Of a stretch of DNA of 64,000 nucleotides, positions 7,665 through 50,478 are shown in pieces. Where the stretch lies: contig CAWBAT010000003.1 of NCBI GenBank assembly GCA_963786955.1, forward strand, positions 128,001-192,000, in the 5' to 3' direction. The translations under genes were made by a program, and so were the position numbers. Position 1 is the first letter of the stretch. The number at the start of each line of letters is the position of its first letter. The stretch comes from an uncultured Acidimicrobiia bacterium. GTDB lineage: Bacteria > Acidobacteriota > Terriglobia > Versatilivoradales > Versatilivoraceae. Below the pieces are notes generated by a model, which was given only the letters and a program-made list of their open reading frames with translations, did not search any database and was not told the origin of the DNA.

Positions 7665-8647
7665 GTGGAACTACGCAAAGATCCCATTACTCAAAGCTGG
7701 GTCATTCAGGACCAGGGGGAACGCCTCTGGCAGCGGATGGATGTCTGTCCTTTATGCCCGGGGCAAGAATCCTACTGTCCGCAAACGATCTGTGCGTTGC
7801 CTCAAGGGCAGGCGAACTGGCAGGTACGGGTTGTCCCACATCTTTGGCCGCTCTATCAAATCGAAGGAGATGCTCAGCGCGCCGGGGAAGGGATCTACGA
7901 CAAAATGCGTAATCTCGGGGCCCACGAAATCGTGATCGAGCATCCGAACCACCATTTAACTCTCTCCCAGTTGAGTGTTGAGCATGTCGCCCTGGTATTA
8001 CAAGCTTATGTGACCCGGTCGATCGACCTGAGGAAAGACCGGCGTTTTCGATATGTCAATGTGTTTCGAAATCAAGGGACGCTAGCCGGGCAAGATTGGG
8101 AACATCCGCATTCCCAGATTATTGCCACGCCTTTTATCCCGCGCCGGGTGGGTTACGAGCTGCGCTCGACCAAGCGTTACTTTGAAATGAAGGAACGCTG
8201 TCTGATTTGCGATTGTGTGCAACAGGAATTGAAACAGCAGGTCAGAGTCGTTGAAGCGGACGAGCAATTCGTGGCATTTTGCCCTTTCGCCTCTCGGGTT
8301 CCGTATGAAACCTGGATATTGCCCATCCAGCACAGTGCTTCATTCGAACAGAACTTGGTCCCTTGGGAGCGGCAAGTGCAGTTTGCCCGCCTCCTCAAAT
8401 CAGTTCTTCAGAGATTGGAGGCGGTGACCAAAGCATATCATCTGGTTCTGCATACTCTCCCAGTATACCTCTAAAAGCGGAGCGGATGGGTAATTGGGAA
8501 ACACTGGAAGAGGATTACCATTGGCATTTCGAGATCCTTCCGATCGTTCCATCTAAGTCAAGGTCTTACAGCCTCAAAGAGGTCTATTACAATTCACTAT
8601 TACCGGAGACCGCGGCGGAAGAATTGCGCCGGGTTGTCCAATCATGA
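7665..8647 (+). CDS. galT: Galactose-1-phosphate uridylyltransferase-like protein (one frameshift near 8456)
   Basis: MELRKDPI, CPLCPGQE, GAHEIVIE, EHPHSQ catalytic motif; C-terminus (YHWHFEILP...PETAAEELR) continues in ORF 8363..8647. Confidence 0.85.
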
Positions 8648-9028
8648 TATGATGAAATGACGTTTTGAAAGGCGTGCAGTTTGTTACGACAGCAAAATTC
8701 TTAAACTTTTGTTGTTGCATGATCTTCTTTGCTCGCACAGCGCCGTCCGCATGAATGGAACAACTTAACTCGTTATCGTGATCAATATTTCAACATAGAA
8801 TCGTTGAGTAGTTCATCTCCGCAGTGTTTTTAAACAACGTGGCCTCTTCCAAAAACCGCTCCCATAATAGGTTTCTCTCGGCTCATTTTCCCCATTCAAG
8901 GGTGAAGTCACCCGCCCCCCTTTTTTGTACAGCTGCCCGTTGATGCACCTTCGGGGCGTCTGTGAAGATAACATTTAATTTACGATCAACACTCAGGCAT
9001 TATCTGCAATTACCCTCAAACATAGCAA

Positions 9029-9044
9029 TGGCTCGGTAATTGCT
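9029..9044 (+). promoter_or_regulatory. Sigma-54 (RpoN) -24/-12 promoter
   Basis: TGGCTCGGTAATTGCT: GG-N10-GC, near consensus TGGCACG-N4-TTGCW, about 85 bp upstream of etfB. Confidence 0.75.
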
Positions 9045-9129
9045 CAGTTGATCGGTAAGGGGGAGTGTCCCAAGGAAAAATATCTACTATTACAATTTAA
9101 AAAACAGGAACCAGGAAGGAGGAAAAACG

Positions 9130-9915
9130 ATGAACATCGCCGTCCTTCTGAAACAGGTACCTGACCTGGTCGAAGAATTGGGAGTAGACGAATCCGGCAG
9201 GGGGCTTGACCACTCCTGGCTGAGATTTGTTCTCAATGAATTCGATGCTCACGCGTTGGAGCAGGCTCTTGTTGCTCAAAGAGCAACAGCGGCGGAGCAA
9301 TCGTGGTCTTTGCACTGAATAGAGGTGAAGTTGATGAAACCCTATTTGCAGCTTTAGCAAAAGGTGCCGATTCGGCAGTTAAGATAACCGGTGATTTCGA
9401 CGAAGGTCTAGACAGCCATACTGCCGGGCGTATCTTCCAATCCATCCTTGGTAGTACCACTTACGATCTTATCCTTACAGGTGTTCAAACTAATGACGAT
9501 GTAGACGGGCAAGTCGGAGGGATCCTGGCCGGATACCTCCATCTTCCCTATGTCAGTGTTGTCAGTGGCCTCCGCATTTCCGAGGACCACAAAGTGGCAA
9601 CGGTGCGCAAGGAATTTCCTGGCGGGCTTCTTTCTGAGATTGCGATAAGAATGCCAGCCGTAATAGGCATTCAGGCGGCCTCCCAACCGCCGCGCTATGT
9701 CCCGATTGCTCGGTTGCGGCAAATCATGAAAACAGGACACATCGAAGAAGTCGCTGCCGATGTCGCCCGTGCAAGCAAGGAAAGTTCCAGGATTCCAAAT
9801 TCGGCGAATGTTCAAGCCAGAGGTGACAGGTCGAGCGGAAATTATTTCAGGAAGTCACGACGTAATTGCTAACCGAATTATCGGCATCCTTGCGGAAAAA
9901 GGGATCGTGAGGTGA
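9130..9915 (+). CDS. etfB: Electron transfer flavoprotein beta subunit (two frameshifts, near 9270-9300 and near 9785)
   Basis: MNIAVLLKQVPD, NEFDAHALEQAL, ALAKGAD, DLILTGVQ..D, PPRY; third-frame tail ends LAEKGIVR-stop at 9915. Confidence 0.88.
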
Positions 9916-9918
9916 GGC

Positions 9919-10902
9919 ATGAATAGAGATATTTATGTGTATGCCGAATACCAGAAAGGACAACTAGCGGAGGTTACCTTTGAGATGCTAGGCAAGGGTC
10001 GACAGCTGGCTGATCTTGCGGGAGGGCGGCTTTTTGCCATGTTAGCGGGGAAGGGTGTGTCAAGCCTGGCCATGCAAATGGCAGCGGCCGATGGGGTGGT
10101 CTATCTCGAAGATGAGCGGCTTGCCAATTTCACTCCCGAGGCTTATCAAATTGCTCTTGCCGAACTGATCAGAGAGAGACAGCCTTGGTTAATCCTTTTC
10201 GGCTCGACCTCGATAGGATTGGATCTGGCCGCCTATCTGTCGGCAGAGCTCGGGATACCTTTCATCGCCTACTGCAAAGATCTGTGCCTCGAGGACGGAG
10301 TTCCCCTTGCGACAAGCCGGCTATTCGGGGGCAAGATGTTTGTCGAAATAGCCATTGAGCACGAACAGGCTGTCCTCTCTGTTCTCCCAGGCGCTTTTCC
10401 TGTCGAGCCGGGATTGACCACCACTACTCCCCAAGTCGAACAATTGAAGCCGACTGCTCTCGACCAGGAGTTGCGAACGCATTTTGTACGCTTCATCGAA
10501 CCCGAAAAAACCGATGTGGACATTACGGCAGTTCCCATATTGGTTTCTCTTGGGCGCGGAATTGAAGCTAAAGAAAATGTTGCATTGGCTCAGGAATTGG
10601 CGGACGAACTCGGCGGGGCCTTAGCGGCATCTCGGCCGGTTGTTGACCAAGGATGGCTACCGATGAGCCGGCAAGTGGGAAGGTCGGGAGTGATTGTCAA
10701 ACCGAGACTGTATCTTGCCTTGGGGATCAGTGGGGCCCCGGAGCATACAGAAGGAATGCGCGGCGCTGAGTTAATCATCGCCATCAACAAAGATCCCCAA
10801 GCGCCCATTTTCGAGATCGCTCACTACGGGGTGCACGGCAATGTGCTGGACCTCGTTCCGGCTTTAACGGATGCGATAAAGTGCAGAAAACTTGCAGCGT
10901 AG
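9919..10902 (+). CDS. etfA: Electron transfer flavoprotein alpha subunit
   Basis: LVSLGRG, ASRPVVDQGW, QVGRSG, LYLALGISGAPEH, IAINKDPQAPIF. Confidence 0.95.
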   Translation: MNRDIYVYAEYQKGQLAEVTFEMLGKGRQLADLAGGRLFAMLAGKGVSSLAMQMAAADGVVYLEDERLANFTPEAYQIALAELIRERQPWLILFGSTSIGLDLAAYLSAELGIPFIAYCKDLCLEDGVPLATSRLFGGKMFVEIAIEHEQAVLSVLPGAFPVEPGLTTTTPQVEQLKPTALDQELRTHFVRFIEPEKTDVDITAVPILVSLGRGIEAKENVALAQELADELGGALAASRPVVDQGWLPMSRQVGRSGVIVKPRLYLALGISGAPEHTEGMRGAELIIAINKDPQAPIFEIAHYGVHGNVLDLVPALTDAIKCRKLAA

Positions 10903-10917
10903 CGAGGGGAGGGGACC

Positions 10918-12910
10918 ATGCATCCCTGCGTGCGCGAATACCTCTCAGTATCAGGAACAGTCTGGCTGTGGATCGCTTTTCTGACGTCGGCGGGGTTGTT
11001 CTCCTATCGGCTTGCTTTCTTTGTCCGCCTTCTGCAATTGGCGAGACAGGAAGATCGATCCAAACAGATTGTCACTCGACTCAAGATTTTTATTACAGAT
11101 GTATTTGTCCAGCCTAGACTCCGCGACGGCATGATCTGGCCGGCGCATCTTTTGATCTTCTGGGGGTTCTTACTTTTCGCGGCAGCCTTCGGATTCACCT
11201 TGTTCAAGGGGCTTTTCCCTTTTCTTCCCTATCCCTGGCCCGAAGATGTCGGCCCAGCCAATTTGATTCTTGAAGTAGGTGCGGTCTTCGTATTGATTGC
11301 GTTGGCGGTTGCCGCTTACCGGCGCTTTGTTGTGCGTCCGCCCGGAGTTAAGCAGACTCTGGATGCAGCCTTCATCCTCGTCTTGATAGGATTGCTGATG
11401 ATCACCTTTCTGTCAGCAGGAGCGTTCAAGAAACTTGGGGATGAAGACCAGGCTGCGATCTGGTCTCCGGTTTCGAGCACTTTGCTTTTTGGCTCAGCTA
11501 TTGGCAATGCCAGTAACTATGGCCTTCGCCCTCTCCGCTTGGATGTGGTGGGGACATGTTCTCCTCGTTTTGGGCTTTCTCGCTTACCTGCCATACTCAA
11601 AACACTTTCATCTGCTGGCTGCCCCCTTCAGCGTTTTCCTGACTGACCTGAACCCAAAGGGAAGGATGCTTCTTGAAGAGAGCCCGGATACAAATTTCGG
11701 AGAGCTTGGATTGAAGGATTTTACATGGCGAGAATTGATGTCTCCGCTGGCGTGTGCGGAATGCGGGCGGTGTGATCGAGTCTGCCCGGCATTCAACAGT
11801 GGCAGTCCCTTATCTCCACAAATTATCGTTCATCATCTGAAGGAACATCTATTGGAGGCCGGCCCCTTACTTTTGTCTAGACGCTCTAAATCGGAGTCTT
11901 TCCGTTCTCTTCTAGACGGAATTGTCTCCCCTGAAGAACTGCAGGCTTGTACTACTTGTTTGGCCTGCACGGAAAACTGTCCGGTTCGGAATGAACATCT
12001 TCCCTTGATCCTACGCATGCGCCGGCATTTAGTGGGGATGGGCAGGATTGAAGACAAAATTCAAGGTACCTTGGCGTATTTCAATCGTTACGGCAATTCT
12101 TTTGGAAAATCTGAGCGGATGCGGACTCAATGGACCCAGGGTCTGCCCTTCAAAATAAAAGATGCTCGAAAGGAGCCGGTGGAATACTTATGGTTTGTCG
12201 GGGATTATGCCTCCTACGATCCCCGGGCGCAAGGAGTCACGCGGACCGTGGCCCAGTTGTTTCACGCCGCCGGTCTGGATTTTGGCCTGCTGTATGAGGC
12301 GGAACGAAATTCTGGAAACGATCTCCGCCGGATTGGAGAAGAGGGGCTTTTTCAATTGATGGCGGAAAGGAACATTGCTTCTTTATCACGCTGCCAGTTC
12401 CACCGAATCGTCACTACAGACCCTCATACCTACAATACCCTTAAGAATGAATATTCTGACCTCGGAGCAAAGTATGAGGTCTGTCATTACACCGAATTGC
12501 TCTTCTCCGTGATTCGCGAAGGTCGCTTGGCCCTGAAGAGCAATGGGAAGTTGGCTGTGACTTATCATGATCCTTGCTACCTGGGCCGCTATAACGGAAT
12601 TTACGAAGAGCCTCGACAAGTTCTCAAGGCACTGGGTCATGAAATACTCGAAATGCCAAGAAACCGAAGTCAAGGGTATTGCTGCGGTGCCGGGGGAGGG
12701 CGGATCTGGGCGGAAGATAAAGGAAAGCTTACAGAACGGCCTGCGGAGAATCGTGTCCGAGAAGCAGCAACGCTCCAGGGAGTTCAAGTGATGGTTGTGA
12801 GTTGCCCTAAAGACCTCGTCATGTTTCAAGATGCAGCCAAAATTACGGGCAACGAAGGAAGGATTGCGATTAAAGATCTTGCTCAGCTGGTCTGGGAATA
12901 TGCGGCTTAA
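10918..12910 (+). CDS. Membrane-bound Fe-S/CCG oxidoreductase (HdrF/FadF/ETF:quinone oxidoreductase-like; frameshift near 11490)
   Basis: N-terminal TM helices with His (AHLLIFWGF, WWGH, SKHFH), two ferredoxin motifs (CAECGRCDRVCP, CTTCLACTENCP), C-terminal CCG domain (YHDPCYLGR, CCGAGGG, SCP). Confidence 0.88.
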
Positions 12911-13039
12911 CGCACGATCTGAGGAAGTGTGTCCACTGAAAGTATTTTGAAAAGATTCTGCCGTGCCGGGGAATGAGAAATTGACAATGCTCGTTGCCTG
13001 CAACACAGGGATAAGCATTGTGGAATCAAGGAGGAATCG

Positions 13040-14256
13040 GTGATGCCCACGACCACGCATGAAGTCATTGAATCATTATGGGGCGTGACTCTCGATAAAC
13101 TCCATGAGACCGAAGAAGGCAGACGCATTCTGTCCTGTATTCAATGCGGTGTGTGTGCCGGGACATGCCCTTACGGAGAATACATGGACTGGCCCCCGCG
13201 TCGGATTATCAAGATGCTGCAGTCAGGCCAATTGGAAGAAGTCTTCCGGTCGGACAGCCTTTTGAAGTGTGTGAACTGTTATGCCTGCATGGAGAAGTGC
13301 CCGCGGAATATCCGATCTAACGGAAATACTTCTCCCGCTGATTAAGGAACAAACAGTCTTGCGTCTTCCCCATGTACCTGCAGAGTTGCAGAAAGCGGTT
13401 GAAAATAGCTTACCGTTATGGCAATCCGATGGGAGAGTCTGGAAGAAAGCGGGCGGCGTGGGTGAAGACAACAAGTGTGCCAGTTCGCATTCTGGCTCAA
13501 GATCCTCGACCCACAGACGTCCTTTGGTTTCTGGAGTCTGATCTTTCCTATCACCCCGGGGACAAGATACGGCACGGGCAACCGCTAGAGTTTTCCACGA
13601 CTTGGGTGTCGATTTCGCCATCTTGGGGCCTGAAGAAAAAAGTGCCGGCGACTGTGGCCGTTTGTCATGGGAAAAAGGGCTGTCTGAAGTCCTCATCGAA
13701 TACAACATGGCCATTTTTGCCAAATATCAGTTTAACCAGATCGTAACCTCTGATCCGCATGCTTTGGACGCTTTCCGATATCGATATACGATGTTTGGAT
13801 TCGACTACAAAGTGACTCACATCGTCCCCTACGTCTTCTCCCACATTGAACAGCTTAAACCATTGCTGAAAAAGAAACTGAATCACAGGGTGACCTATCA
13901 CGACTCCTGCTGTCTGGGACGTCATAATAGCATCTATACCGAGCCAAGAGCTTTGCTGCAAGCCATACCAGGCATTCAGCTGTCTGAGATGGTGCACAAC
14001 CGCAACAACACTCTCTGTTGCGGCGGCGGTGGGCGGCGGGATGTGGCTCGATGCGTATTATAAGTCCAAAGGGATGGATCGACTTTCGGATAGGCGGATT
14101 CAAGAGGCAATCGACACCGGCGCCGATGTGCTGGCCGTGGCCTGTCCATACGAGGTTTCCCGATTCGAGGACTCCCTGAAGGTAACAGGCTATGAGGGGA
14201 AGATGATTGTGCGCGACATTATGGAGCTTTTGGCTGAATCGATGGGAGGTGAGTAA
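13040..14256 (+). CDS. Soluble HdrD-like (Fe-S + CCG) protein, about four frameshifts
   Basis: AAGGAGG RBS; CIQCGVCAGTCP, CVNCYACMEKCP; YGNPMGES; YHDSCCLGR, CCGGGG, VACPY pieced across five overlapping ORFs. Confidence 0.8.
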
Positions 14257-14257
14257 T

Positions 14258-16246
14258 ATGGAAGTTGCGTACGATCCCATCCGCATCGGCTTTTACATCT
14301 GCCATTGTGGGACGAACATAGCAGGAGTAATAGACGTCAAAACAGTAACTCAATTCGCTTCCGGCTTGCCTCACGTTGTTGTGTCTCGTGATTACAAATA
14401 CATGTGTTCTGATCCCGGGCAGGAAATGATCCAACAGGATATTATGGATCATCGACTCACGCGCGTTGTCGTTGCTTCCTGTTCCCCTTTGCTTCATGAA
14501 TCGACTTTTCGGAATGCTATCGCAAAAGGAGGGCTGAACCCTTTCTATTTGCAGATGGTCAATATCCGCGAGCATGATTCCTGGGTCCACGAAAACCGCC
14601 AGTCAGCAACAGAGAAGGCAATGGATTTGACTCGTGCCGCCGTGCTGAGAGTGGCGCTTCATCAACCCCTCGAACGCAAGCGAGTGCCCATCCGTTCTGA
14701 TGCGCTTGTTGTTGGAGGGGGAATTGCCGGAATTCATGCGGCTTTGACAATTGCGAATGCCGGCAAGCACGTCTATTTAGTGGAGCGGGAACCGACCATC
14801 GGCGGACACATGGCCCAGTTCGACAAAACATTCCCGACACTGGACTGTGCCGCCTGCATCCTCACGCCGAAGATGACTGCTGTGAAGGCACATCCGAATA
14901 TCACGCTCTGGACGTACTCGGAAGTGATTCATGTCAAAGGCTTCGTTGGGGATTACCAGGTCACCGTGCGACACAAGCCGCGCTATGTTTTGGAAGATCT
15001 CTGTGTAGGCTGTTTGGAGTGTATTGAAGCTTGCGTCTACAAGGATGCGCGGTTTCCGGATGAATTCAATCTGGGGCTGGGAAGACGTAAGCCGATCTAT
15101 ATCCCTTTTCCTCAAGCCGTGCCTCAAGTGGCGGTGATTGACAGGGAAGCATGTATTCAATTTAAATCGGGCAAATGCAAGCAGACCTGCGTCGAGGCTT
15201 GTGGAGACCGCCATGCGATTGATTTTAAACAGGAGGAATCGACAGAGGAAGTCCAGGTAGGCTCCGTCATCCTGGCAACCGGGTTTCAAGTTTTCGATGC
15301 TCACCGGGTTTCCTACTATGGCTACGGAACCTATCCCAACGTGTACACCGCACTTGAGGTCGAGCGATTGGTCAATGCATCCGGACCGACTGGCGGTGAA
15401 GTAGTCCTGCGCGATGGACGAAAACCAAAGTCGGTTGCGATCATTCACTGTGTGGGGTCTCGAGACGAGAATACGAATCGCTGGTGCTCGCGTGTGTGCT
15501 GCATGTACTCGCTAAAGCTGGCCCATCTTCTTAAGGAGCGGACTGGGGCGGAAATCTATAATTTCTACATTGATATCCGGGCTCCAGGGAAGAGCATGGA
15601 GGAGTTTTATAATCGTGTCGCCGAGGAAGGGGTGCATTTTATCCGAGGAAAAGTGGCAGATGTTTATCCGGCCATTCCAAAGGAGACGAACCGGCTCATT
15701 GTTCAGGGAGAAGATACACTCATTGGAAGGATAGTAAAGATTCCGGTGGACATGGTTATTCTATCAGTAGGACTTGAGCCCCAACCTGATACACCCAAGG
15801 TTCGCCGGATGTTCAATGTCTGTTGTGCATCAGAAGGATTTTTCATGGAGCGCCACCCGAAGCTCGCTCCGGTGAACACCTTCACGGACGGCATCTTTCT
15901 GGCGGGTGCCTGCCAGGGACCGAAGGATATCCCGGACACTGTTGCACAGGCCGGAGCAGCTGCCAGTGAAGCTCTAGCCCTGATTGACGCGGGATACATG
16001 GAGCTAGAGCCAAATGCTGCCATAATTGTGGAAGAGGATTGTTCAGGCTGCAAATCATGCATCCCACTTTGCCCCTATTCTGCAATTGATTTTGTTGAGG
16101 AAACCAAGAAAGCCAGAGTTCAAGAAGCTCTCTGCAAAGGATGCGGTGTCTGCGTAGCCGCCTGTCCGTCTGGATCCATTCGGCAGCCCATGTTTGAGGA
16201 TGAAGAGATTTACACTGAAATCAGAGGAGTGCTGGCTGGCGTCTAA
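14258..16246 (+). CDS. hdrA: Heterodisulfide reductase subunit A-like flavoprotein, copy 1
   Basis: IGFYICHCGTNI, GGGIAG, FDKTFPTLDCAACILTPKM, CSRVCCM, GACQGPKDIP, C-terminal ferredoxin; GGAGG RBS. Confidence 0.95.
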   Translation: MEVAYDPIRIGFYICHCGTNIAGVIDVKTVTQFASGLPHVVVSRDYKYMCSDPGQEMIQQDIMDHRLTRVVVASCSPLLHESTFRNAIAKGGLNPFYLQMVNIREHDSWVHENRQSATEKAMDLTRAAVLRVALHQPLERKRVPIRSDALVVGGGIAGIHAALTIANAGKHVYLVEREPTIGGHMAQFDKTFPTLDCAACILTPKMTAVKAHPNITLWTYSEVIHVKGFVGDYQVTVRHKPRYVLEDLCVGCLECIEACVYKDARFPDEFNLGLGRRKPIYIPFPQAVPQVAVIDREACIQFKSGKCKQTCVEACGDRHAIDFKQEESTEEVQVGSVILATGFQVFDAHRVSYYGYGTYPNVYTALEVERLVNASGPTGGEVVLRDGRKPKSVAIIHCVGSRDENTNRWCSRVCCMYSLKLAHLLKERTGAEIYNFYIDIRAPGKSMEEFYNRVAEEGVHFIRGKVADVYPAIPKETNRLIVQGEDTLIGRIVKIPVDMVILSVGLEPQPDTPKVRRMFNVCCASEGFFMERHPKLAPVNTFTDGIFLAGACQGPKDIPDTVAQAGAAASEALALIDAGYMELEPNAAIIVEEDCSGCKSCIPLCPYSAIDFVEETKKARVQEALCKGCGVCVAACPSGSIRQPMFEDEEIYTEIRGVLAGV

Positions 16247-16567
16247 GGGTTATCATTCGTTTTTACCAGTTCTGGCCGAATGCTTCACGGTGGCTTTCAA
16301 TTTCATTGCCATCGCCGATGTTGAATATTTCTATATCCCCCCCCCAAGGGCGGGGGCTGTGTGCAAGATTCGAGGATAGAACTGTCCCTCTTTGTTTTTC
16401 TTGCTTTTTCTTTACTCGAACGAATTTCCCCCAAATAAGGGTGAACTCACCCGCCTCTACCTTCATTTCTAATTTCAAACCGTTTCAAAATTATCACCTT
16501 TCTACAGCTTCTTTTGTTTCTATCACCGTTTTGCTCTACTCCTGACCAACATCCGCAATATTTCGAA

Positions 16568-16583
16568 TGGCGCGGAAATTGCA
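16568..16583 (+). promoter_or_regulatory. Sigma-54 (RpoN) -24/-12 promoter
   Basis: TGGCGCGGAAATTGCA: GG-N10-GC, near-perfect consensus, in the AT-rich spacer upstream of hdrC. Confidence 0.8.
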
Positions 16584-16725
16584 GATTATGAGAAGAAGTC
16601 ATTAGAAAAAGTGGAGGATATCGCAATTTCAATTGGGGCAGGGCAAAGTTGAAGAAGAGTTGGACAATGATGAATTCTTCAGCATAACAAGCAGAGCAGG
16701 TTGACCGAGTGAGGAGTCAAACTCT

Positions 16726-17295
16726 ATGGAAAGAACGATCAAGTACCAACGCGATGTTGATCCGGAGTGGACGCATCAAGTCAACGAACGACCCGGATGT
16801 GAGAGTCTCTTGGCATGCATGCAATGCGGAACCTGTTCTGGCGCCTGTCCGCTTTCAATTTACATGGATCTTTCTCCGCGTCGGATCATGGCATTGGTTC
16901 GCGAAGGATTTCGGGCTGAAGCTTTGAAATCCCAAACCATCTGGCTGTGTGCTTCCTGTTATGCCTGCGGTGTACACTGTCCACAAAAGATCAAAATTAC
17001 GGATGTGATGTACAGCTTGAAGAGAGAGGCGATCTCTTCGGGTCTTTACCCCCGGCATTTCCCCATTCCTGTGTTGTCGAGCGAGTTTTACAAAATGGTG
17101 AAACAACGCGGGCGCAATGCCGAGTTTTGGCTTGTCCTCCAGATGGCCTTGCGTTCCCATCCTTTGATGTTACTCGGCATGGTGAATTCAGGCTGGCATC
17201 TATGGCGAACAGGCCGGCTTTTCATGCGTCGGGATCGGATCAATCGTATTACTGAACTACAGCGGGCCCTCGGTTTTACCAAGGAGGACAATTGA
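16726..17295 (+). CDS. hdrC: Heterodisulfide reductase subunit C
   Basis: CMQCGTCSGACP and WLCASCYACGVHCP; GAGGAG RBS. Confidence 0.92.
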   Translation: MERTIKYQRDVDPEWTHQVNERPGCESLLACMQCGTCSGACPLSIYMDLSPRRIMALVREGFRAEALKSQTIWLCASCYACGVHCPQKIKITDVMYSLKREAISSGLYPRHFPIPVLSSEFYKMVKQRGRNAEFWLVLQMALRSHPLMLLGMVNSGWHLWRTGRLFMRRDRINRITELQRALGFTKEDN

Positions 17296-18207
17296 ATGGA
17301 ATCCCCGAATCAAGGTTACCTGTACTATCCTGGCTGCACCTTGAAGGCAAGCGCAATTGCTTATGAGGAAAGCCTGCTTACCCTTTATCGTCTCTTGGGT
17401 GTGCCGATCAAGGAACTTGAGGACTGGAATTGTTGTGGTGCCACCTCGTATATGTCTATTGAGGAGAGTTCAGCCTTCATTTTAGCGGCGAGAAATCTCT
17501 CTCTGGCGCACCAGGAAGGCTACCGAGAATTGATGACGCCATGTTCCGCCTGCTACCTGATTCTGAAGAAAGCCCAGGATTATGTGCAACGTTATCCGGC
17601 CATTGGCCGTCAGGTGGGGGAGGCGCTCCATCGGGCGGGTTTGCCGCCGATGGACTCGGTTCAAGTCCGTCATCCCCTGGAAATACTTTACAACGACATT
17701 GGAGTGGAGCGGATACGCTCAAAGGTTGCGCGCCACTGGCAAGGGGGGAGGGTCGCATGCTATTACGGATGTCAGATTGTTCGACCTTATTCCGAGGTGG
17801 ATACTCCCTACAACCCCACACGAATGGATGAACTCCTTCAGGCAGTCGGGATTCCCACTGTAGATTTCCCCTTGAAAACTAAGTGCTGTGGGGGGTCTCT
17901 GACGGGGACGATTCACTCCGTCGGAGTACGTCTCAATTACATTCTTCTCAAGGAAGCTGTCCGAAAGGGTGCTCAGGCTATTGTTACAGTATGCGGGCTC
18001 TGCCAATTCAACCTGGATGCCTATCAGTCGGAAATTCGCGGCGAGGCGCACGAACAGTACAATATACCTGTTTTTTACCTGCCCCAGGTCCTCGGTTGGC
18101 AATTAGGGGGCGACTATCGCTCTCTCGGACTTCATAGGGCAATCTCCGGCAGGCATCTCATCAAGCAGTGGTTCTCTGCAGAGAAAGAGGTAGAGGCATA
18201 TGTTTGA
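17296..18207 (+). CDS. hdrB: Heterodisulfide reductase subunit B
   Basis: Two complete CCG domains: YYPGC..WNCCG..PCSAC and YYGC..KCCG..VCGLC. Confidence 0.93.
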   Translation: MESPNQGYLYYPGCTLKASAIAYEESLLTLYRLLGVPIKELEDWNCCGATSYMSIEESSAFILAARNLSLAHQEGYRELMTPCSACYLILKKAQDYVQRYPAIGRQVGEALHRAGLPPMDSVQVRHPLEILYNDIGVERIRSKVARHWQGGRVACYYGCQIVRPYSEVDTPYNPTRMDELLQAVGIPTVDFPLKTKCCGGSLTGTIHSVGVRLNYILLKEAVRKGAQAIVTVCGLCQFNLDAYQSEIRGEAHEQYNIPVFYLPQVLGWQLGGDYRSLGLHRAISGRHLIKQWFSAEKEVEAYV

Positions 18208-20194
18208 AAATAATGGTCGGGCTCGGATTGGATTCTACATCTGTCATTGCGGCAGCAATATTGCAGGAATCGTCGATGTCAAATCTGTTGCGGAATATGT
18301 CGCCACACTGCCTGGCGTCGTCATTTCCAGAGACTATAAGTACATGTGTTCCGATCCCGGACAGGAACTCATCATACAGGATATCGAAGACAATGATCTG
18401 AACCGGATTGTGGTTGCTTCCTGTTCACCTCTTCTGCATGAGCACACTTTCCGAAAGGCAACGGCACGAGCCGGTTTGAATCCCTATTTTCTTCAGATGG
18501 TCAACATTCGCGAGCACGACTCTTGGGTCCATAGTGATAAGGCGAAAGCGACTACCAAAGCCAAAGATTTGGCTCGGGCGGCGGTCCGGCGGGTCGCCTC
18601 GCACAAACCCCTGGAGCAAAAAAGGGTACCCATCCATCCCAAAGTCCTGGTCCTCGGCGGCGGAATAGCTGGAATTCATGCCGCGTTGACATTGGCGGAT
18701 GCGGGAAAACATGTCTATCTCGTCGAGCGAGAGCCCAGCATTGGTGGGCACATGGCTCAGTTTGACAAGACTTTCCCAACTCTGGACTGTGCGGCTTGCA
18801 TCTTGACACCAAAGATGAGTGCGGTACGCGCTCATCCTAATATCACTTTATGGACCTACTCGGAAGTATCCCGGGTGGAAGGTTATGTCGGAAATTTCAA
18901 GGTGACCGTGACCCGCAACCCTCGCTACGTAAAAGAAGAGTTATGTGTCGGATGCCTGGAATGTGTTGAGGCCTGTGTCTATAAGGAAGCTCGATTTGTA
19001 GACGAGTTCAATGTCGGACTAGGGAAACGGAAACCGATCTATATTCCTTTCCCTCAGGCCACCCCGCAGATGGTGCTCATCGACCGTGAAGCTTGCATTC
19101 AATTCAAATCAGGAAAATGCAAGAAAACATGTGTGGAAGCGTGCGCGGATCGCAAAGCGATCGACTTTGGGCAACAGGAAAGGATCGAAGAGATCGAGGT
19201 GGGTGCCATTATTGTCGCCACGGGATTTCAAACCTTTGATGCACGCCGGATACCGTATTACGGTTATGGGACGAATCCTAGCGTTTACACGGCGCTGGAA
19301 ATTGAACGGCTGGTAAATGCCTCTGGCCCTACAGGTGGTGAAGTCATTCTTCGAGACGGAAGCCATCCCAAGGCCGTCGGAATCATCCATTGTGTGGGAT
19401 CGAGAGATGAAAACACCAATCGATGGTGCTCACGTGTCTGCTGCATGTACTCGTTGAAACTGGCGCACCTGATCAAAGAGCATACCGATGCAGAAGTATT
19501 CAACTTCTACATTGATATCCGTACGCCGGGGAAAGGATTTGAAGAGTTCTACCAAAAGCTGCGCAATGAAGGGGTGCATTTCATCCGGGGGCGTGTGGCG
19601 GAAGTTACGGATTGGGCGCTAGACCCATCTGAAGAGGGCAAAGCCGTCATCCGTGTAGAAGATACCTTGACGGGATTTGTTCGCAGAATTCCCGTCGATA
19701 TGGTGGTGTTAGCGGTAGGGCTAGAACCCCAAGCCGACTCCCAGGAAGTACGTCGTTTGTTCAACATCAGCTGTTCTACAGAAGGGTTCTTCCTGGAACG
19801 CCATCCTAAGCTTGCGCCAGTCAATACTTTTACCGATGGCATTTTCATAGCAGGTGCCTGTCAGGGGCCGAAAGATATTCCAGATACTGTAGCCCAAGCT
19901 GGAGCCGCTGCCGGGGAGGCCCTAGCCTTGATTGATCGGGGTTTCATGGAACTGGAACCCAATACAGCCTACATCGTCGAAGAAGACTGCTCCGGCTGTA
20001 AGTCGTGTATACCCCTCTGCTCCTATAACGCGATTACTTTTGTAGAGGAAAAGAACAAGGCTGCCATTCAAGAGGCTCTGTGCAAAGGATGCGGCACCTG
20101 TGTTGCGGCGTGCCCGTCGGGCTCCATTCGACAACATCTTTTCGAAGACGAGGAGATCTATGGGGAGATTGAAGGGATACTAACTCCGGTGTAG
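18200..20194 (+). CDS. hdrA: Heterodisulfide reductase subunit A-like flavoprotein, copy 2
   Basis: Same motifs as copy 1 with long identical peptide stretches; overlaps hdrB stop. Confidence 0.95.
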   Translation: MFENNGRARIGFYICHCGSNIAGIVDVKSVAEYVATLPGVVISRDYKYMCSDPGQELIIQDIEDNDLNRIVVASCSPLLHEHTFRKATARAGLNPYFLQMVNIREHDSWVHSDKAKATTKAKDLARAAVRRVASHKPLEQKRVPIHPKVLVLGGGIAGIHAALTLADAGKHVYLVEREPSIGGHMAQFDKTFPTLDCAACILTPKMSAVRAHPNITLWTYSEVSRVEGYVGNFKVTVTRNPRYVKEELCVGCLECVEACVYKEARFVDEFNVGLGKRKPIYIPFPQATPQMVLIDREACIQFKSGKCKKTCVEACADRKAIDFGQQERIEEIEVGAIIVATGFQTFDARRIPYYGYGTNPSVYTALEIERLVNASGPTGGEVILRDGSHPKAVGIIHCVGSRDENTNRWCSRVCCMYSLKLAHLIKEHTDAEVFNFYIDIRTPGKGFEEFYQKLRNEGVHFIRGRVAEVTDWALDPSEEGKAVIRVEDTLTGFVRRIPVDMVVLAVGLEPQADSQEVRRLFNISCSTEGFFLERHPKLAPVNTFTDGIFIAGACQGPKDIPDTVAQAGAAAGEALALIDRGFMELEPNTAYIVEEDCSGCKSCIPLCSYNAITFVEEKNKAAIQEALCKGCGTCVAACPSGSIRQHLFEDEEIYGEIEGILTPV

Positions 20195-20333
20195 CGGAAT
20201 ATCAGAGCCAAGCTCGCCGAGCTCGAGCATGCATGAATTCAAAGTGGTGTCCGGATCGATGAGTCTTACAAAACCAGCAAGGAGATTAGCCATAGATCGT
20301 CATTAGAGACGAGTTGAAAGAGTCGAGGCCTCA

Positions 20334-20819
20334 ATGAACACATACGCATTGATCCAAGAATTTCTGGACCAAAAAAAATCGCGATGGTCGGGGTTTCCCG
20401 GGACCCGAAGCATTTCAGCCGCAAGCTGTTTAGGACACTGAGTGAGCGCGGTCATGCCATGCTGCCGGTGAATCCGAGTGCCCTAGAAATCGACGGGATT
20501 CATTGTTATCCGAGTATCGAAGCGATCCCCTTCCCAGTGAAGTGTGCCTTGTTGATGACCCCTCGGAAGGTAACCGATCATGTCGTGGAAGAGTGTGCCT
20601 CGGCCGGAAGCGACTTGGTTTGGATCTATGGGATCTCAGGGCCAAAACAGGTCAGTGCCCACACACTCAGGATTTGTGAACAGCATGGATCTAGGGGTTA
20701 TTCCGGGGTATTGCCCGTATATGTTCCTTGGTAATGGTGCGTTTTTCCATCGTCTCCATGGATTCGTCTTGAAGGCGACAGGGAAATATCCGAAATTAGG
20801 AATGCCGATGAGGACATAG
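20334..20819 (+). CDS. CoA-binding protein (YccU-like), two frameshifts
   Basis: MNTYALIQEFLDQK, shift in an A run to IAMVGVSRDPKHFS...PVNP...CYPSI, second shift to VIPGYCPYMFL. Confidence 0.78.
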
Positions 20820-20929
20820 CCCAAAATTGCTCTATGACCCGTCAGAAATGGATGAAGAGCGGAAAGGAAACACATAAGCTCATAAAGTGAGCCCGCGTTA
20901 CAAGGTGGCAATAGGAGGCCCAGATATGG

Positions 20930-21439
20930 ATGAGAAAGCGAAGGCGGATACCGAAAAGGGCGAGAGAGTGGGAACCACGTATCGTGGCATTTTTTTGTAA
21001 CTGGTGCACTTACACGGCTGCTGATTTGGCTGGAGTCTCGAGAATGCGTCATGCTCCCAACGCACGTGTCATCCGTGTCATGTGTTCCGGGCGAGTCGAT
21101 CCTCAATTTATTCTGGACGCATTTGCCCGAGGCGCCGACGGAGTGCTGATCGGTGGCTGCCATCCGGGTGATTGCCATTATGCGGAGGGCAATTACAAGA
21201 CTTTACGGCGGTTTCAGCTCTTGAAGCGTCTGGTAAAAGACATGGGGATCGAAGAAGATCGCCTTCGCCTCGAGTGGATTTCCGCTTCCGAAGGCGAGAA
21301 GGTAAAGATCGTCATCAACGACTTGGTCGAGAAGGTTCGCCTTTTGGGGCCTCTTGCGATGCCCCATCAGTTCGAGACCTGGGATGAGGAACTACAGTCT
21401 ATTGCGGGAGAGGAAACGGAGGTGAGCACTCATGTCTGA
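20930..21439 (+). CDS. mvhD: Methyl-viologen-reducing hydrogenase delta subunit (MvhD/FlpD, 2Fe-2S)
   Basis: FFCNWCTYTAAD, RVMCSGRV, GCHPGDCHY, WISASEG; true start may be ATG 20926 with an indel. Confidence 0.93.
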   Translation: MRKRRRIPKRAREWEPRIVAFFCNWCTYTAADLAGVSRMRHAPNARVIRVMCSGRVDPQFILDAFARGADGVLIGGCHPGDCHYAEGNYKTLRRFQLLKRLVKDMGIEEDRLRLEWISASEGEKVKIVINDLVEKVRLLGPLAMPHQFETWDEELQSIAGEETEVSTHV

Positions 21440-22398
21440 GAAGCCCAAAGTTGCTTTTTACTGGTGCGCTTCTTGTGGCGGCTGTGAGGAGTCAATCGTT
21501 GATCTTGGCTGAAGACCTTCTCGAGGTGGTCGGAGCAATAGAGATTGTTCTCTGGCCGGTGGCAATGGACTTCAAAAAACATGATATTGAAGGGATGCCC
21601 GACTCTTCGATCCTGGCAGCTTTGGTTAACGGCAGCATCCGGACTTCAGAGCAGGAAGAGATGGCACGGCTATTGCGTCGCAAGAGCAAGATTCTCGTGG
21701 CCTATGGATCCTGTGCCCAATTAGGCGGTATTCCCAGTTTGGCAAACCAGTTTGGTAAGGAGCAAATCCTGGAGTACGTTTATCAACAATCACCCTCGGT
21801 CGTGAACGAATCTAAGCTGTTTCCCCAAAGGGAAACTCAAGTCAACGGCTTCAATGCAATACTTCCCCGGTTCCACACTCTCGTTCGTTCCTTGGACCAG
21901 ATCGTCGAAGTGGATTATTATCTCCCGGGCTGCCCTCCGACACCTAAATTGATTAAGCAAGCCTTGACAACTCTTCTTTCCGGCGATGCTCCTCCCAAAG
22001 GGACTGTTTTGGCGCCTGACGTCGCTCTTTGTGAGGAATGCGCCAGGAAATCATCGAAGCCTACCGACTTGCACTTCTCTCGTTTCAAACGCCCGCATGA
22101 AATCATGATTGATCCGGACAAATGTTTGCTGGCACAAGGGGTCTTATGTATGGGCCCTGCAACTCGAGGAGGATGTGAAGCGCTTTGTGTGCAGGGAAAC
22201 ATGCCTTGCACGGGCTGTTTTGGCCCTACGTCACGGGTCCGAGACCAAGGTGCTAAAATGCTTTCAAGCCTGGCCTCCTCTGTTGACGCCAAAGAGAAAA
22301 AGGAAATTGACGAGATTCTTGCGGGGATCCCGGATCCTGTTGGGAGTTTCTATCGATATGGTATGGCAAAGTCCTTGCTTAGAGGCAAATTAAATTGA
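21432..22398 (+). CDS. mvhG: Group 3c [NiFe] hydrogenase small subunit (frameshift near 21505)
   Basis: MSEKPKVAFYWCASCGGCEES from ATG 21432, then GSCA..GGIP, PGCPP, CMGPATRGGCEALC..MPCTGCFG. Confidence 0.9.
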
Positions 22399-22501
22399 TC
22401 GGGAAATAAAGAAGAATTTCAACTTATTAAGTTGCGACTGAGTGCGCCAGAGTCGCCGGGACGTTTTAAGGAAACTATTGGAAGGCGTTGGAGGTAGAGA
22501 G

Positions 22502-24052
22502 ATGGATGAAAGTATTCGCACCGTTTGGAGCGAAGCCCAGAAAAAGGCAAATGCGAGCTACATGCAAACTCGCCGAATCACGATTGATCCCATTACACGG
22601 CTGGAAGGACATGGGAAGATCGACATTTTTTTGGATGATCAAGGTGAGGTGGAGAAGGCTTATTTTCAAGTACCGGAACTTCGAGGGTTTGAGGTGTTCA
22701 GTATTGGACGTCCGGCTGAAGACATGCCACAGATTACAAGTCGTATCTGTGGGGTCTGTCCCACTGCTCATCATATGGCGGCTACCAAAGCCCTGGACGA
22801 TCTTTATAAGGTCGAACCTCCTCCTGCAGCGAAGAAAATACGGGAGCTAGTTTATAGTACATTCATGTTGGAGGACCATGCTCTCCATGTGTATTTGCTG
22901 GGAGGGCCGGATTTTATTGTCGGCCCGGATGCTCCTCGCGAACTCAGAAACGTACTGGGGGTTATTGATAAAGTGGGACTTGAAACTGGCAAGAAGGTCA
23001 TCAGCATGCGCCGCCGATTACGCGAACTCATCACCTACGTCGGCGGAAAGGTGATTCATCCGGTTCTTGGCTTGCCGGGAGGGGTCGCCAAGGGGATCAC
23101 CTCTGATGAGCTCCCTCGATTCCAGCAACTCGCAAAAGACGGCCTGGAGTTTGCTCTTTTCACTCTCCAGGTTTTCAAAGACATTGTCCTAAAGAACAAG
23201 GACTATGTGAATCTCATTTCTTCAGATATCTATACTCACAACACTTATTATATGGGCCAAGTGGATGAATCCAACCGGGTAAATTTCTACGACGGGATGC
23301 TAAGAGTCGTAGACCCCAATGGCGTGGAGTTTGTCAAATTTCGAGCGCAAGACTATCTGAATCAGATTGCGGAACGCGTTGAAACATGGAGTTATGTGAA
23401 GTTTTGTTATCTCAAATCAGTGGGTTGGCATGGCTTTACTGATGGAAAAGAAAGCGGAATCTACTGTGTGGCCCCGTTGGCGAGATTGAATGCGTCCGTG
23501 GGAATGGCTACTGCAAAAGCACAACAGGCTTATGAGGAATTTTACACAACTTTAGGAGGCAAACCCGTTCAGCACACCTTGGCAAATCATTGGGCAAGGA
23601 TCGTCGAAATGATTTATGCAGCAGAAAGAATGAACGAATTGCTCAATGATCGCGAAATCACTAGCAAAGACCTTCGAGTGATCCCCACCATGACTCCCAC
23701 CTCGGGGATTGGTGTTGTAGAAGCTCCTCGCGGCACACTCTTCCATCATTATGAGACCGATGACAATGGAATCATCCGGAAAGCAAACTTGATCGTTGCA
23801 ACGCAAAACAACTCTGCCCGGATGGCCATGAGCGTTGAAAAAGCAGCCAAAGGTGTCATTCATCATGGTGAAGTTTCTGAAGGGTTGTTAAATCGAATCG
23901 AGATGGCATTTCGAGCCTATGATCCCTGCCACGCTTGTGCCACTCACTCCCTTCCAGGAAACATGCCGCTCATCGTACGGGTGCGTGATCAAAGGGGTGA
24001 AACGTTGAGCATCCTGCAACGCGATCCGGACGGAAAGATATCCAGGAGTTAA
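22502..24052 (+). CDS. mvhA: Group 3c [NiFe] hydrogenase large subunit
   Basis: IDPITRLEGHG, L1 SRICGVCPTAH, EAPRGTL, L2 RAYDPCHACATH plus cleavable C-terminal extension; GGAGG RBS before ATG 22502. Confidence 0.93.
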   Translation: MDESIRTVWSEAQKKANASYMQTRRITIDPITRLEGHGKIDIFLDDQGEVEKAYFQVPELRGFEVFSIGRPAEDMPQITSRICGVCPTAHHMAATKALDDLYKVEPPPAAKKIRELVYSTFMLEDHALHVYLLGGPDFIVGPDAPRELRNVLGVIDKVGLETGKKVISMRRRLRELITYVGGKVIHPVLGLPGGVAKGITSDELPRFQQLAKDGLEFALFTLQVFKDIVLKNKDYVNLISSDIYTHNTYYMGQVDESNRVNFYDGMLRVVDPNGVEFVKFRAQDYLNQIAERVETWSYVKFCYLKSVGWHGFTDGKESGIYCVAPLARLNASVGMATAKAQQAYEEFYTTLGGKPVQHTLANHWARIVEMIYAAERMNELLNDREITSKDLRVIPTMTPTSGIGVVEAPRGTLFHHYETDDNGIIRKANLIVATQNNSARMAMSVEKAAKGVIHHGEVSEGLLNRIEMAFRAYDPCHACATHSLPGNMPLIVRVRDQRGETLSILQRDPDGKISRS

Positions 24053-24361
24053 TGGATCCATCCTTCAATGAGAAAAATCAAGTCGCATTCGTATGGTTAT
24101 GGAAGACCTTGGAAACACAATCCCTGTTTATTCCTCCAACCCCTCTCTTTAACGGAAAGGGTCGTTCGCCAGACGGCAGACCGGGTGACCTCGACTCGAC
24201 GTGTCTGTCTATTTGCAACTTGGTACAAAACCCGGAGACAGAGAGAAGATCTCTGAGAATCAAGATTCAATATCGAGGAATAGAGGCGTCATTTCGCTCC
24301 ACCGGTTTTTGTAAGAGTAGAAGGGGAGCGACTGCCCTATGCCTGTATCAAATATGGAAAT

Positions 24362-24844
24362 ATGGGAATGATACCGAAAATTCTAGTTTTGGGACTGGGA
24401 AACGAGCTCCTGAGTGACGATGGAGTTGGAATTAAAGCTGCCCGAGCTCTGCGAGAAGAGCTTCAGTCCCAGGTCGATGTCATCGAATGTTCTGAATCCG
24501 GTTTATCCCTGTTGGATGTTCTGGAGGGATATGAGCGAGTCCTGCTCCTCGATGCGATTTTAACCGGCCAACACCCCCCCGGAACCGTCTTAGAGTTTTG
24601 CGCGCAAGATTTTCCTGATACGGTCATCCTTTCACCCCACTCCGCTGGGATTCCAGAACTCCTCCAACTGGCCAAAAGGCTGGGAATCCACTTTCCTGAA
24701 AAACTGTACATCCTTGCCATAGAGGTAGAAAATCTGTTTGAACTGGGGGAAAAGTTGACCCCAGCGGTGGAAGCCGCTCTCCCTGAATTTATTTCCAAGG
24801 GAAAGGAACTCATAGGCAGGCTGGAATGCCACACTACCCGCTGA
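24362..24844 (+). CDS. Hydrogenase maturation protease
   Basis: LVLGLGNELLSDDGVG, LLLDAI, SPH motif of the HyaD/HycI family. Confidence 0.92.
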   Translation: MGMIPKILVLGLGNELLSDDGVGIKAARALREELQSQVDVIECSESGLSLLDVLEGYERVLLLDAILTGQHPPGTVLEFCAQDFPDTVILSPHSAGIPELLQLAKRLGIHFPEKLYILAIEVENLFELGEKLTPAVEAALPEFISKGKELIGRLECHTTR

Positions 24845-24897
24845 CTGCCGACCTTTCGCCATAGGGATTCAGGTGATTTGAACAGGAGAGTAAACCC

Positions 24898-39381: not shown

Positions 39382-39409
39382 TTAATTACTCCGTATTCTA
39401 GTCTCGATG

Positions 39410-39451
39410 GTTAATAGTCCGTAGTTTAAGGTTCAAGGATCAAGGTTTAAA
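39410..39451 (+). repeat. Degenerate heptamer tandem array (GTTYAAG) downstream of the four-helix-bundle gene
   Basis: gttaata gtccgta gtttaag gttcaag gatcaag gtttaaa. Confidence 0.75.
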
Positions 39452-39454
39452 CCA

Positions 39455-39884
39455 TTAGGTTCCATGCCTTGCAGGTGGCGCTTGGATTTCAGAAGGCTTG
39501 TATTTTGAACCACGCAGATCAGAATGTCTAAGGTACCCCATTAATCCTGAAATCATTCTGCTGACTCTTTTCGTTTGCTCAATGAGGTCATCAAAATCAG
39601 TCTGCTTCATGTAACCTCTGTCAGATGCCAAATAAAGCTGGGCACGGAGTTCCCCCGCGGACCCTTTTGCCTGCGAAAGAAATCTGCAGGAACTCCCGAT
39701 TTCCCCCTCTTTCAAACCCTTCAGCAATGTTTGAAAGAATCGATACAGCAGCGCGACGAATTTGATTACGAAGTTCAAAGTCTCTAGAAAATGGGTGAAG
39801 TTCGGATAAATCGTAAATCAAGTTAGCAAGAACACGAGCCTCTTTCCAAGCATCCATATCCTCAAAGGTTGTGATCCTCGCCAT
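39455..39884 (-). CDS. Four helix bundle protein (23S rRNA IVS-protein-like), frameshift near 39683
   Basis: FEDMDAWKEA, QIRRAAVSILSNIAEGFERG..EF, then FLSQAKGSAGELRAQLYLA in the second frame. Confidence 0.88.
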
Positions 39885-39915
39885 ACATTCAATTTCTAAG
39901 AATAATTCTAAGCAA

Positions 39916-39971
39916 TTCGAACCTTGAACCTTGAACCTTAAACCTTTGACTTTCGACCTTAGACTTTTGAC
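39916..39971 (-). repeat. Eight-unit heptamer tandem array upstream of the four-helix-bundle gene, inverted relative to the 39410 array
   Basis: Plus strand ttcgaac cttgaac cttgaac cttaaac ctttgac tttcgac cttagac ttttgac. Confidence 0.85.
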
Positions 39972-39973
39972 AG

Positions 39974-49577: not shown

Positions 49578-49580
49578 CTG

Positions 49581-50440: not shown

Positions 50441-50478
50441 AGCCGCATCAACCTGTGCCGTCTTCTAGTAGGGTCGAG

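Follow-up and report, generated by a model that had tools for sequence, protein, structure and literature searches.

Bacterial clusters that combine a group 3c [NiFe]-hydrogenase with heterodisulfide reductase (Hdr) genes are routinely annotated as reducing an unknown disulfide. A cluster of 13 genes in an uncultured member of the Acidobacteriota raises the question of whether a disulfide is the only outlet of such a hydrogenase. The cluster lies in a 64,000-nucleotide stretch, here called the window (contig CAWBAT010000003.1, positions 128,001 to 192,000, of assembly GCA_963786955.1); the host genome, G000, comprises 5.65 Mb in 9 contigs and is 93% complete, and its 16S gene matches an Acidobacteria primer site exactly, which like the nearest named relatives of HdrA2 points to Acidobacteriota. 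Module 1 encodes an electron-transfer flavoprotein (ETF), a membrane iron-sulfur (FeS) protein, an HdrD-like protein and a first HdrA (HdrA1), and module 2 encodes HdrC, HdrB, a second HdrA (HdrA2) and the Mvh hydrogenase. Our preferred reading, to which we assign a probability of roughly 60%, is that one MvhAGD hydrogenase feeds both HdrA paralogs, each in its own bifurcating complex, and that the outlets differ: a disulfide for HdrA2-HdrBC, and ETF, EMO and menaquinone for HdrA1-HdrD. All 13 genes were found on one strand in the order given by a first-pass annotation of this DNA:

9130..9915, + strand: etfB (PF01012), likely of the non-bifurcating type by motif comparison; frameshifted near 9271-9290 and 9781 (three-frame reading, indels relative to relatives)
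9919..10902, + strand: etfA (PF01012 and PF00766)
10918..12910, + strand: membrane heme-b FeS protein of the EMO/EtfD family; best solved relative EtfD 9ojn (E 2.9e-80); frameshifted near 11481-11507
13040..14256, + strand: HdrD/BamD-like soluble protein with an HdrC-like ferredoxin domain and an EMO-type CCG domain; in four to five reading-frame pieces
14258..16246, + strand: hdrA1, of an ETF-linked clade by family match and HdrA tree
16726..17295, + strand: hdrC; TIGR03290 is the best family, below cut-off
17296..18207, + strand: hdrB, with all ten cysteines of the non-cubane clusters
18200..20194, + strand: hdrA2, of an HdrBC-linked acidobacterial clade by alignment and HdrA tree
20334..20819, + strand: CoA-binding-domain protein (PF13380), frameshifted; a genus-specific passenger
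20930..21439, + strand: mvhD (PF02662), the sole copy detected in the genome by tblastn
21432..22398, + strand: mvhG, frameshifted near 21503
22502..24052, + strand: mvhA, [NiFe]-hydrogenase large subunit with MvhA L1 and L2 motifs
24362..24844, + strand: hydrogenase maturation protease (TIGR00072, over cut-off)

In the wiring that we infer, including its protein contacts and its direction, MvhAG would oxidise H2 and pass the electrons through MvhD to an HdrA flavin, where they would be split, with the low-potential electron going to ferredoxin in both complexes. In HdrA2-HdrBC the high-potential electron would reach a disulfide at the catalytic non-cubane clusters, as in methanogens. In HdrA1-HdrD it would go to the non-bifurcating ETF encoded in the same module; the module's EMO-like membrane protein would reoxidise this ETF and deliver electrons to menaquinone and on to respiration, N2O and O2 reductases being encoded. 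Module 1 would then amount to the high-potential branch of class II benzoyl-CoA reductase driven by a hydrogenase.

Residues of the ETF module

Residues of frameshifted genes were analysed in intact orthologs and then checked against the pieces in the window. In intact orthologs of the HdrD-like protein the N terminus matches HdrC and the CCG part matches EtfD, and the predicted structure of one ortholog (locus L069, pLDDT 84.7) has EtfD 9ojn as its best match (TM score 0.81, versus 0.50 for HdrB). His237 is present in 26 of 26 orthologs, and Trp332 and Tyr367 in 23 of 26 each; their spacing resembles that of His230, Trp325 and Tyr356 in BamD, as judged by comparing spacings and not by aligning BamD itself. 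The proximal site reads CPYE, the fifth cysteine being replaced by Glu368 in all 26 orthologs, and two or more cysteines are lost from the distal site. The five cysteines and open pocket of catalytic HdrD and DsrK are absent, and the substrate site looks blocked. The ETF also looks non-bifurcating: its family consensus reads QAIDDLDG where a bifurcating loop would be expected, for which we take DGDTxQVGP in EtfB to be the motif, and its best PDB match is 1o94.

These residues have counterparts in described proteins. In BamD the His, Trp and Tyr occupy the site of CoM-S-S-CoB, and BamD takes the high-potential electron from an HdrA-type flavin to a non-bifurcating ETF that is likely reoxidised by EMO and menaquinone (bioRxiv 10.64898/2026.04.10.717634). 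In EtfD and Syntrophus EMO a matching His renders the cluster non-catalytic (PMC13083937; 10.64898/2026.08.18.745454). The HdrD-like protein thus has features of a non-catalytic, BamD-type ETF-docking subunit. The likeness to the BamDEF-ETF(BamOP)-EMO branch of class II benzoyl-CoA reductase extends to an HdrA-type flavoprotein, an HdrBC-fusion subunit with His/Trp/Tyr, a degenerate distal cluster, a non-bifurcating ETF and an EMO leading to menaquinone. Unlike that branch, HdrA is here of single length and not a fused dimer, and the fifth proximal ligand is Glu, not Cys (10.64898/2026.04.10.717634); unlike the whole reductase, the input is a [NiFe]-hydrogenase, the genome yielded no AOR/BamB (PF01314) and the cluster holds no BamGHI.

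The membrane protein has two cubanes, etfAB as neighbours and, in each of 28 sequences, three heme histidines plus a blocking His, as in Syntrophus EMO, mycobacterial EtfD (9ojn) and FadF. It differs from EMO and EtfD in lacking cysteine at all four distal-cluster positions, as FadF does (PMC13083937), and in the residue equivalent to Cys712, the fifth proximal cysteine, which is Asp in 27 of 28 sequences and Glu in one (CPKD versus CPFC). It also differs from all three in being tied to hydrogenase genes and not to beta-oxidation. Among the best 30 of 44 matches to a profile built from cluster-type proteins, all 14 loci with the CPKD form, the window's own included, came from MvhA-positive genomes, versus none of the 16 with the CPFC form. 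On these residues the protein is a member of a dedicated EMO clade. Loss of the distal cluster was rejected as a signature, since 5 of the 16 ordinary EMOs have lost it too. CPFC without the distal-cluster cysteines is seen in ordinary EMO-family proteins at L127, L129, L131, L133 and L135.

The link to the quinone pool that the first-pass annotation had drawn is supported. The link to acyl-CoA that it had also drawn is not needed: the genome has five acyl-CoA dehydrogenases, none of them in the cluster, and a second ETF with a conventional ETF-QO. Module 1 likely needs neither a disulfide nor acyl-CoA. Among 201 genomes of the host's class, 13 encode an intact HdrD-like protein and 21 this MvhA, and all 13 are among the 21, counts that describe related, not independent, genomes; intact proteins only were counted, and the host itself was missed, its gene being broken. 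Five of the 13 have no HdrB at E<=1e-40, and therefore HdrD can stand in for HdrBC.

Module 2 and its hydrogenase

MvhA in the window reads ICGVCPTAHH at L1 and AYDPCHACATH at L2, in line with the group 3c motifs ICGxCxxxH and AYDPCxxCATH (PMC6085437). Both motifs occur in 58 of 67 close MvhA homologs and L1 alone in the other 9. MvhD, MvhG and HdrABC are all encoded alongside, and the expectation of a group 3c-type hydrogenase is supported by these genes and motifs. HdrB retains the ten cysteines of two non-cubane clusters, bridging ones included, and all six HdrB cysteine motifs pass in 54 of 61 homologs. The cluster's HdrB scores 150 bits against a cut-off of 345 for TIGR03288. By its genes and residues module 2 is an ordinary MvhAGD-HdrABC and should reduce a disulfide. 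It resembles the complex of hydrogenotrophic methanogens (PDB 5odc, 8rvu) in having all six subunits, the HdrB cysteines and the L1 and L2 motifs; it differs in its bacterial host, in the lack of any detected ComA, DsrA or DsrC, and in the adjoining second HdrA with another predicted outlet.

DsrA and DsrC were not found in the 93%-complete host genome, nor was ComA, the one CoM route searched. The question of the disulfide substrate that the first-pass annotation raised applies to the HdrB of module 2 alone, the HdrD-like protein of module 1 looking like a non-catalytic ETF-docking subunit. One TusA-family gene lies elsewhere in the host genome. Clustering of neighbouring families (open reading frames, ORFs, of >=100 aa) gave no recurring sulfur or lipoate carrier near the clusters; what recurs are two-component regulators, hyp genes, other hydrogenases and NrfD-like genes, with one receiver-GcvH fusion. 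The CoA-binding gene was rejected as a clue to a CoA disulfide, as it is not conserved beyond the genus: it occurs in a second genome of the genus, G002, and weakly in 1 of 80 other loci.

HdrA paralogs, assembly and promoters

The cluster is real and not misassembled. Joining at the similar hdrA copies was ruled out: hdrA1 and hdrA2 are 75% identical in amino acids and 69% in nucleotides, their longest exact common stretch is 17 nt, and an 814-nt contig of a relative's run (X10) spans the 3' end of hdrA1 to hdrC. Five cluster genes are frameshifted in the assembly (etfB, the membrane protein, HdrD-like, CoA-binding and mvhG), which the first-pass annotation had not mentioned. Short-read contigs of close relatives carry one-base indels at 8454, 9271, 9290, 9781, 11481, 11507, 13317, 20691 and 21503 (at least nine places, galT included), mvhG is intact at the same place in G002, and outside the cluster 7 of 43 listed G002 ORFs are likewise split in G000, two of the seven being opposite-strand shadows. 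The frameshifts are therefore most likely assembly errors, and look like long-read indels.

In a FastTree phylogeny built from 83 full-length HdrA sequences with midpoint rooting, neither an outgroup nor a clade test being used, the set that holds HdrA1 has 14 members, 13 of them ETF-linked (support 99). The 12 members of the set that holds HdrA2 are all HdrB-linked (support 96), and the nearest named relatives of HdrA2 are from Acidobacteriota. The ETF label needs 8 changes on the tree; in this phylogeny ETF linkage is clustered and not one clade. The separate clades rule out a recent tandem duplication. Two copies of hdrA are present, as had been claimed, yet they are paralogs of different clades brought together, not the product of local duplication. 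HdrA2 aligns end to end with methanogen HdrA (712 bits to 8rvu_a) and has its cluster and flavin motifs; in both copies the Glu and Lys that align with methanogen HdrA are conserved, as are the cluster-binding motifs of the four domains. The flavin Lys is described as a hallmark of bifurcating HdrA (bioRxiv 10.64898/2026.04.10.717634), and both copies, carrying the residues expected of it, would bifurcate.

Each module is preceded by a palindrome, GGGTGAAnTCACCC, and exactly 115 nt later by a TGGC-N7-TTGCW motif, which matches what we take to be the sigma54 (-24/-12) consensus:

8900..8913, + strand: palindrome GGGTGAAGTCACCC, predicted enhancer (activator) site of module 1, within a 32-nt repeat whose likeness to 16424-16455 is 84%; the sigma54-type motif follows 115 nt later
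9029..9044, + strand: predicted sigma54 (-24/-12) promoter of module 1, TGGC-N7-TTGCT, a motif match to the assumed consensus
16439..16452, + strand: palindrome GGGTGAACTCACCC, predicted enhancer site of module 2, in the repeat; kept in G002
16568..16583, + strand: predicted sigma54 promoter of module 2, TGGC-N7-TTGCA, a motif match; kept in G002 at 114 nt spacing

G002 retains both palindrome and motif, and the listed changes in the X10 contig spare the TGGC and TTGCA of the module 2 promoter. Since the palindrome-to-promoter spacers of the two modules are no more alike than shuffled sequence (47% versus a shuffled mean of 46%), conservation is confined to the motifs and the distance between them. 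The loose TGGC-N7-TTGCW motif occurs 156 times on both strands of the host genome, and the perfect palindrome three times. Two sigma54 promoters under one activator are predicted, and the genome encodes 22 strong sigma54-activator candidates, none singled out as the activator. These shared elements favour co-regulation of the modules. Scans for sigma70 promoters and terminators stayed at chance level. The third perfect palindrome (G000:C3:98087, L110:10088) precedes a 111-aa ORF by about 90 nt, and no sigma54 motif to match it was found; an additional TGGC-N7-TTGCT match at window 22364-22379, inside the end of mvhG and 123 nt before mvhA, is probably a coding coincidence. At other loci two-component genes repeatedly adjoin the cluster (downstream at L016, L057 and L062; also at L021, L034, L049, L051-L053, L079-L081 and L085): an NtrC-type activator and kinase stand beside the closest HdrA2 relatives, and elsewhere there is a Cache-domain kinase with hybrid and single receivers.

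The two modules come and go separately, at odds with the single obligatory system first proposed. Of two same-genus genomes, G002 carries module 2 at the corresponding site and gave no hit to the module 1 membrane protein, and G001 has neither module; in a contig of a relative's run (X6), galT is joined straight to the gene for a thiamine pyrophosphate (TPP) enzyme, the entire 16-kb cluster (window 8634-24872) being missing. The 16-kb cluster has the look of an accessory island, with no mobility gene visible. In G002 the intergenic region upstream of the palindrome follows module 1 (72%) and that downstream of the promoter is closer to module 2 (62% versus 50%), and therefore a module was gained or lost at about the palindrome repeat.

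Recurrence in other genomes was found in several phyla (Acidobacteriota, Verrucomicrobiota, Bacteroidota, Gemmatimonadota, Armatimonadota, Chloroflexota and others) among the best 80 of at least 595 HdrA loci. HdrB and Mvh alone occur at 44 of the 80, and the ETF module with Mvh and no HdrB at nine, one with a broken hdrA. Nine loci have the HdrBC and HdrD arms with a single hdrA, and two (L018, L050) have both arms and two hdrA; the remaining 16 are incomplete, contig ends having cut many of them. Single-arm examples are G033 and G051, each with an intact HdrD-only cluster, and Limisphaera sp. 4302-co (L044), where module 2 stands alone. At L018 and L050 the ETF-side HdrA is no sister of HdrA1, which suggests that the two-hdrA layout arose more than once. 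In G120, G187, G127 and G180:C30, 10-12 kb separate hdrB from mvhA and no full-length HdrA match of this type falls between them, possibly a variant with a large or split HdrA.

The survey also bears on a single supercomplex, close to what was first proposed, in which an HdrA1-HdrA2 heterodimer, with HdrBC and HdrD on opposite sides, would couple H2, disulfide, ferredoxin and quinone in a single assembly. In solved complexes HdrA forms dimers; mvhD is single, promoter elements are shared, nine loci have both arms with one hdrA, and two further ones have them with two hdrA. BamE, moreover, is a fused HdrA dimer (10.64898/2026.04.10.717634). In many genomes, nevertheless, one module accompanies Mvh without the other, module 2 is the only one present in G002, and the flavin Lys is conserved in both HdrA copies, in contrast to the second half of BamE in that source, so that we regard the supercomplex as unlikely.

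Several observations weigh against two separate complexes with the outlets we propose. A strict split of one HdrA per outlet is not general, given the nine single-hdrA loci with both arms. The host's own HdrD-like gene has the most frameshifts of any cluster gene and, at two positions where all 26 orthologs have Cys, encodes Ser. The non-bifurcating call on the ETF depends on the motif assumed above, and host EtfB reads DDVDGQVGG, keeping its QVG part. Among solved structures the cluster's MvhA scores highest against HydL of Acetomicrobium (381 bits), followed by MvhA (349-355 bits; 337-355 bits when VhuA is included) and HoxH (320 bits), the best NCBIfam family being VhuA, below cut-off. The co-occurrence counts in the 201 genomes and 30 EMO loci come from related genomes and are descriptive. 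The case for general sigma54 control across phyla is weak, with the motif in just 3 of 78 upstream regions of distant loci against 0.33 expected.

Direction, energetics and significance

Direction was considered from published potentials of H2 (-414 mV) and heterodisulfide (-140 mV; PMC8880783), ferredoxin (-450 mV) and menaquinone (-74 mV; PMC10734219), and ETF (+16 mV; 10.64898/2026.04.10.717634). By hand calculation at standard state, the H2 threshold would be ~10 Pa with a disulfide as acceptor, ~1 Pa with menaquinone and <0.1 Pa with ETF.

The wiring might instead run in reverse, with reduced ferredoxin and reduced ETF, the latter from acyl-CoA oxidation or menaquinol, confurcated to H2 during fermentation. 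The five acyl-CoA dehydrogenases and three ferredoxin-reducing oxidoreductases of the genome would suit this, group 3 hydrogenases are possibly bidirectional (10.1101/197269), and EMO works in both directions in Syntrophus (10.64898/2026.08.18.745454). However, with ferredoxin at -450 to -500 mV and ETF at +16 mV, H2 would be released only below ~0.02-0.2 Pa (by hand, from the mean donor potential); the cluster has no acyl-CoA dehydrogenase, a separate ETF and ETF-QO are present, and a group 3b hydrogenase is available for H2 release. We hold this reversal to be improbable.

There is only a slim chance that module 1 is independent of the hydrogenase, a thiol or other donor being oxidised at HdrA1-HdrD and electrons passing through ETF to quinone, as proposed for sulfur-oxidising Hdr-ETF clusters and modelled as thiol oxidation for Thermomicrobium (PMC6776052). 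Module 1 has its own predicted promoter and no mvhD, and at 3 of 80 loci the stretch fetched around the ETF module has no mvh gene. All 13 HdrD-like-positive genomes of the class nevertheless have this MvhA, the CCG site seems to be blocked, neighbouring ORFs of >=100 aa include no recurrent sulfur-carrier family, and HdrA1 is of the full-length methanogen type and not short sHdrA (via the HdrA2 alignment, 75% alike). It is very improbable that this strain keeps module 1 only as a remnant in decay, with module 2 alone functional: most frameshifts do fall in module 1, its HdrD-like gene has two Cys-to-Ser changes and G002 lacks it, but compensating indels occur in relatives' contigs at several breaks, unrelated genes nearby are similarly broken, hdrA1 and etfA are intact, and a relative (X10) keeps junction and promoter.

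The host genome would accommodate the proposed two-outlet wiring. It encodes futalosine menaquinone genes, three 2-oxoacid:ferredoxin oxidoreductases, NosZ, two heme-copper oxidases, and group 1 and 3b-type hydrogenases; Rnf gave below-cut-off matches only. A search for dsr, CoM, bam and hyp genes, which had been advised, gave hypD, with DsrA/DsrC, ComA and BamB not found. The O2-dependent uricase reported for the same organism is present at 48732-49577, and the occurrence of Mvh-Hdr with O2-using enzymes in one bacterium is not new. The uricase belongs to a purine catabolism operon (window 48732-55489) with xanthine dehydrogenase-like subunits, an amidohydrolase, OHCU decarboxylase and HIUase. 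Also in the window are a stand-alone adenylation-carrier-thioesterase protein (45861-48611), an AviRa-like rRNA methyltransferase (PF11599; 56930-57694) that is a possible resistance gene, and a planctomycete-type DUF1549/DUF1553 cytochrome gene with one frameshift, accompanied by DUF1501 (37939-43148). Elsewhere, an anaerobic respiration island (G000:C4:830000-872000, L103-L105) holds hyp genes, a multiheme cytochrome c, a group 1 hydrogenase and its cytochrome b that follow a sigma54 activator and a TGGC-N7-TTGCT motif, NosZ together with nosD/L, genes for Rieske and cytochrome b proteins, and a hydrogenase of group 3b type. An RnfC-like gene below the family cut-off lies near a LutA-like CCG gene (G000:C6:374900-376300), and a tRNA-Sec on C5.

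Clusters of this kind have been partly described. Chloroflexi group 3c hydrogenase-HdrA2B2C2D-EtfAB-ETF-QO clusters have the same gene set and were noted as possibly bifurcating, with no route assigned in the portion of that source available (10.1101/2021.08.23.457424); unlike those, the present cluster has two hdrA paralogs, and the modules are separable and occur in other phyla. Acidobacterial precedents are MvhAGD-HdrABC in family UBA6911 (10.1101/2021.04.09.439258) and group 3c in peat Acidobacteria (10.1101/197269), where the available text has no ETF/EMO/HdrD module, 'ETF' being absent from the main text of the former. Different Hdr or ETF clusters are treated in PMC6776052, PMC5736913, 10.1101/2024.08.04.606487 and PMC9723716. 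A literature search mostly outside subscription papers found neither a proposal of Mvh-HdrA-HdrD-ETF-EMO wiring, on which supplementary text S4 of 10.1101/2021.08.23.457424 may bear, nor a description of the Asp/Glu signature. The cluster is thus real, widespread and partly described before; what is added is the specific mechanism proposed for the ETF arm.

More tentatively, at slightly less than even odds, module 1 with MvhAGD would be a distinct, widespread H2-driven bifurcating system with ETF and menaquinone as high-potential acceptor and a non-cubane Asp/Glu ligand not yet described. It would allow facultative anaerobes of several phyla to reduce ferredoxin at H2 levels ten to several hundred times below those of the methanogen enzyme, and this strain would switch outlets by swapping HdrA paralogs on one hydrogenase.

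At about one third of the examined loci, the residues indicate ETF and menaquinone in place of the disulfide of routine annotation, and no new cofactor is needed. The CPxD/E motif provides a sequence marker and a possible new non-cubane cluster ligand. If the proposed wiring is true, the cluster would offer nature's simplest example of the HdrA-to-ETF route that has just been shown for the 1-MDa benzoyl-CoA reductase, and H2 scavenging and ferredoxin supply would be tied to N2O or O2 respiration in Acidobacteriota and Verrucomicrobiota, giving such bacteria a strong reductant from scarce hydrogen.

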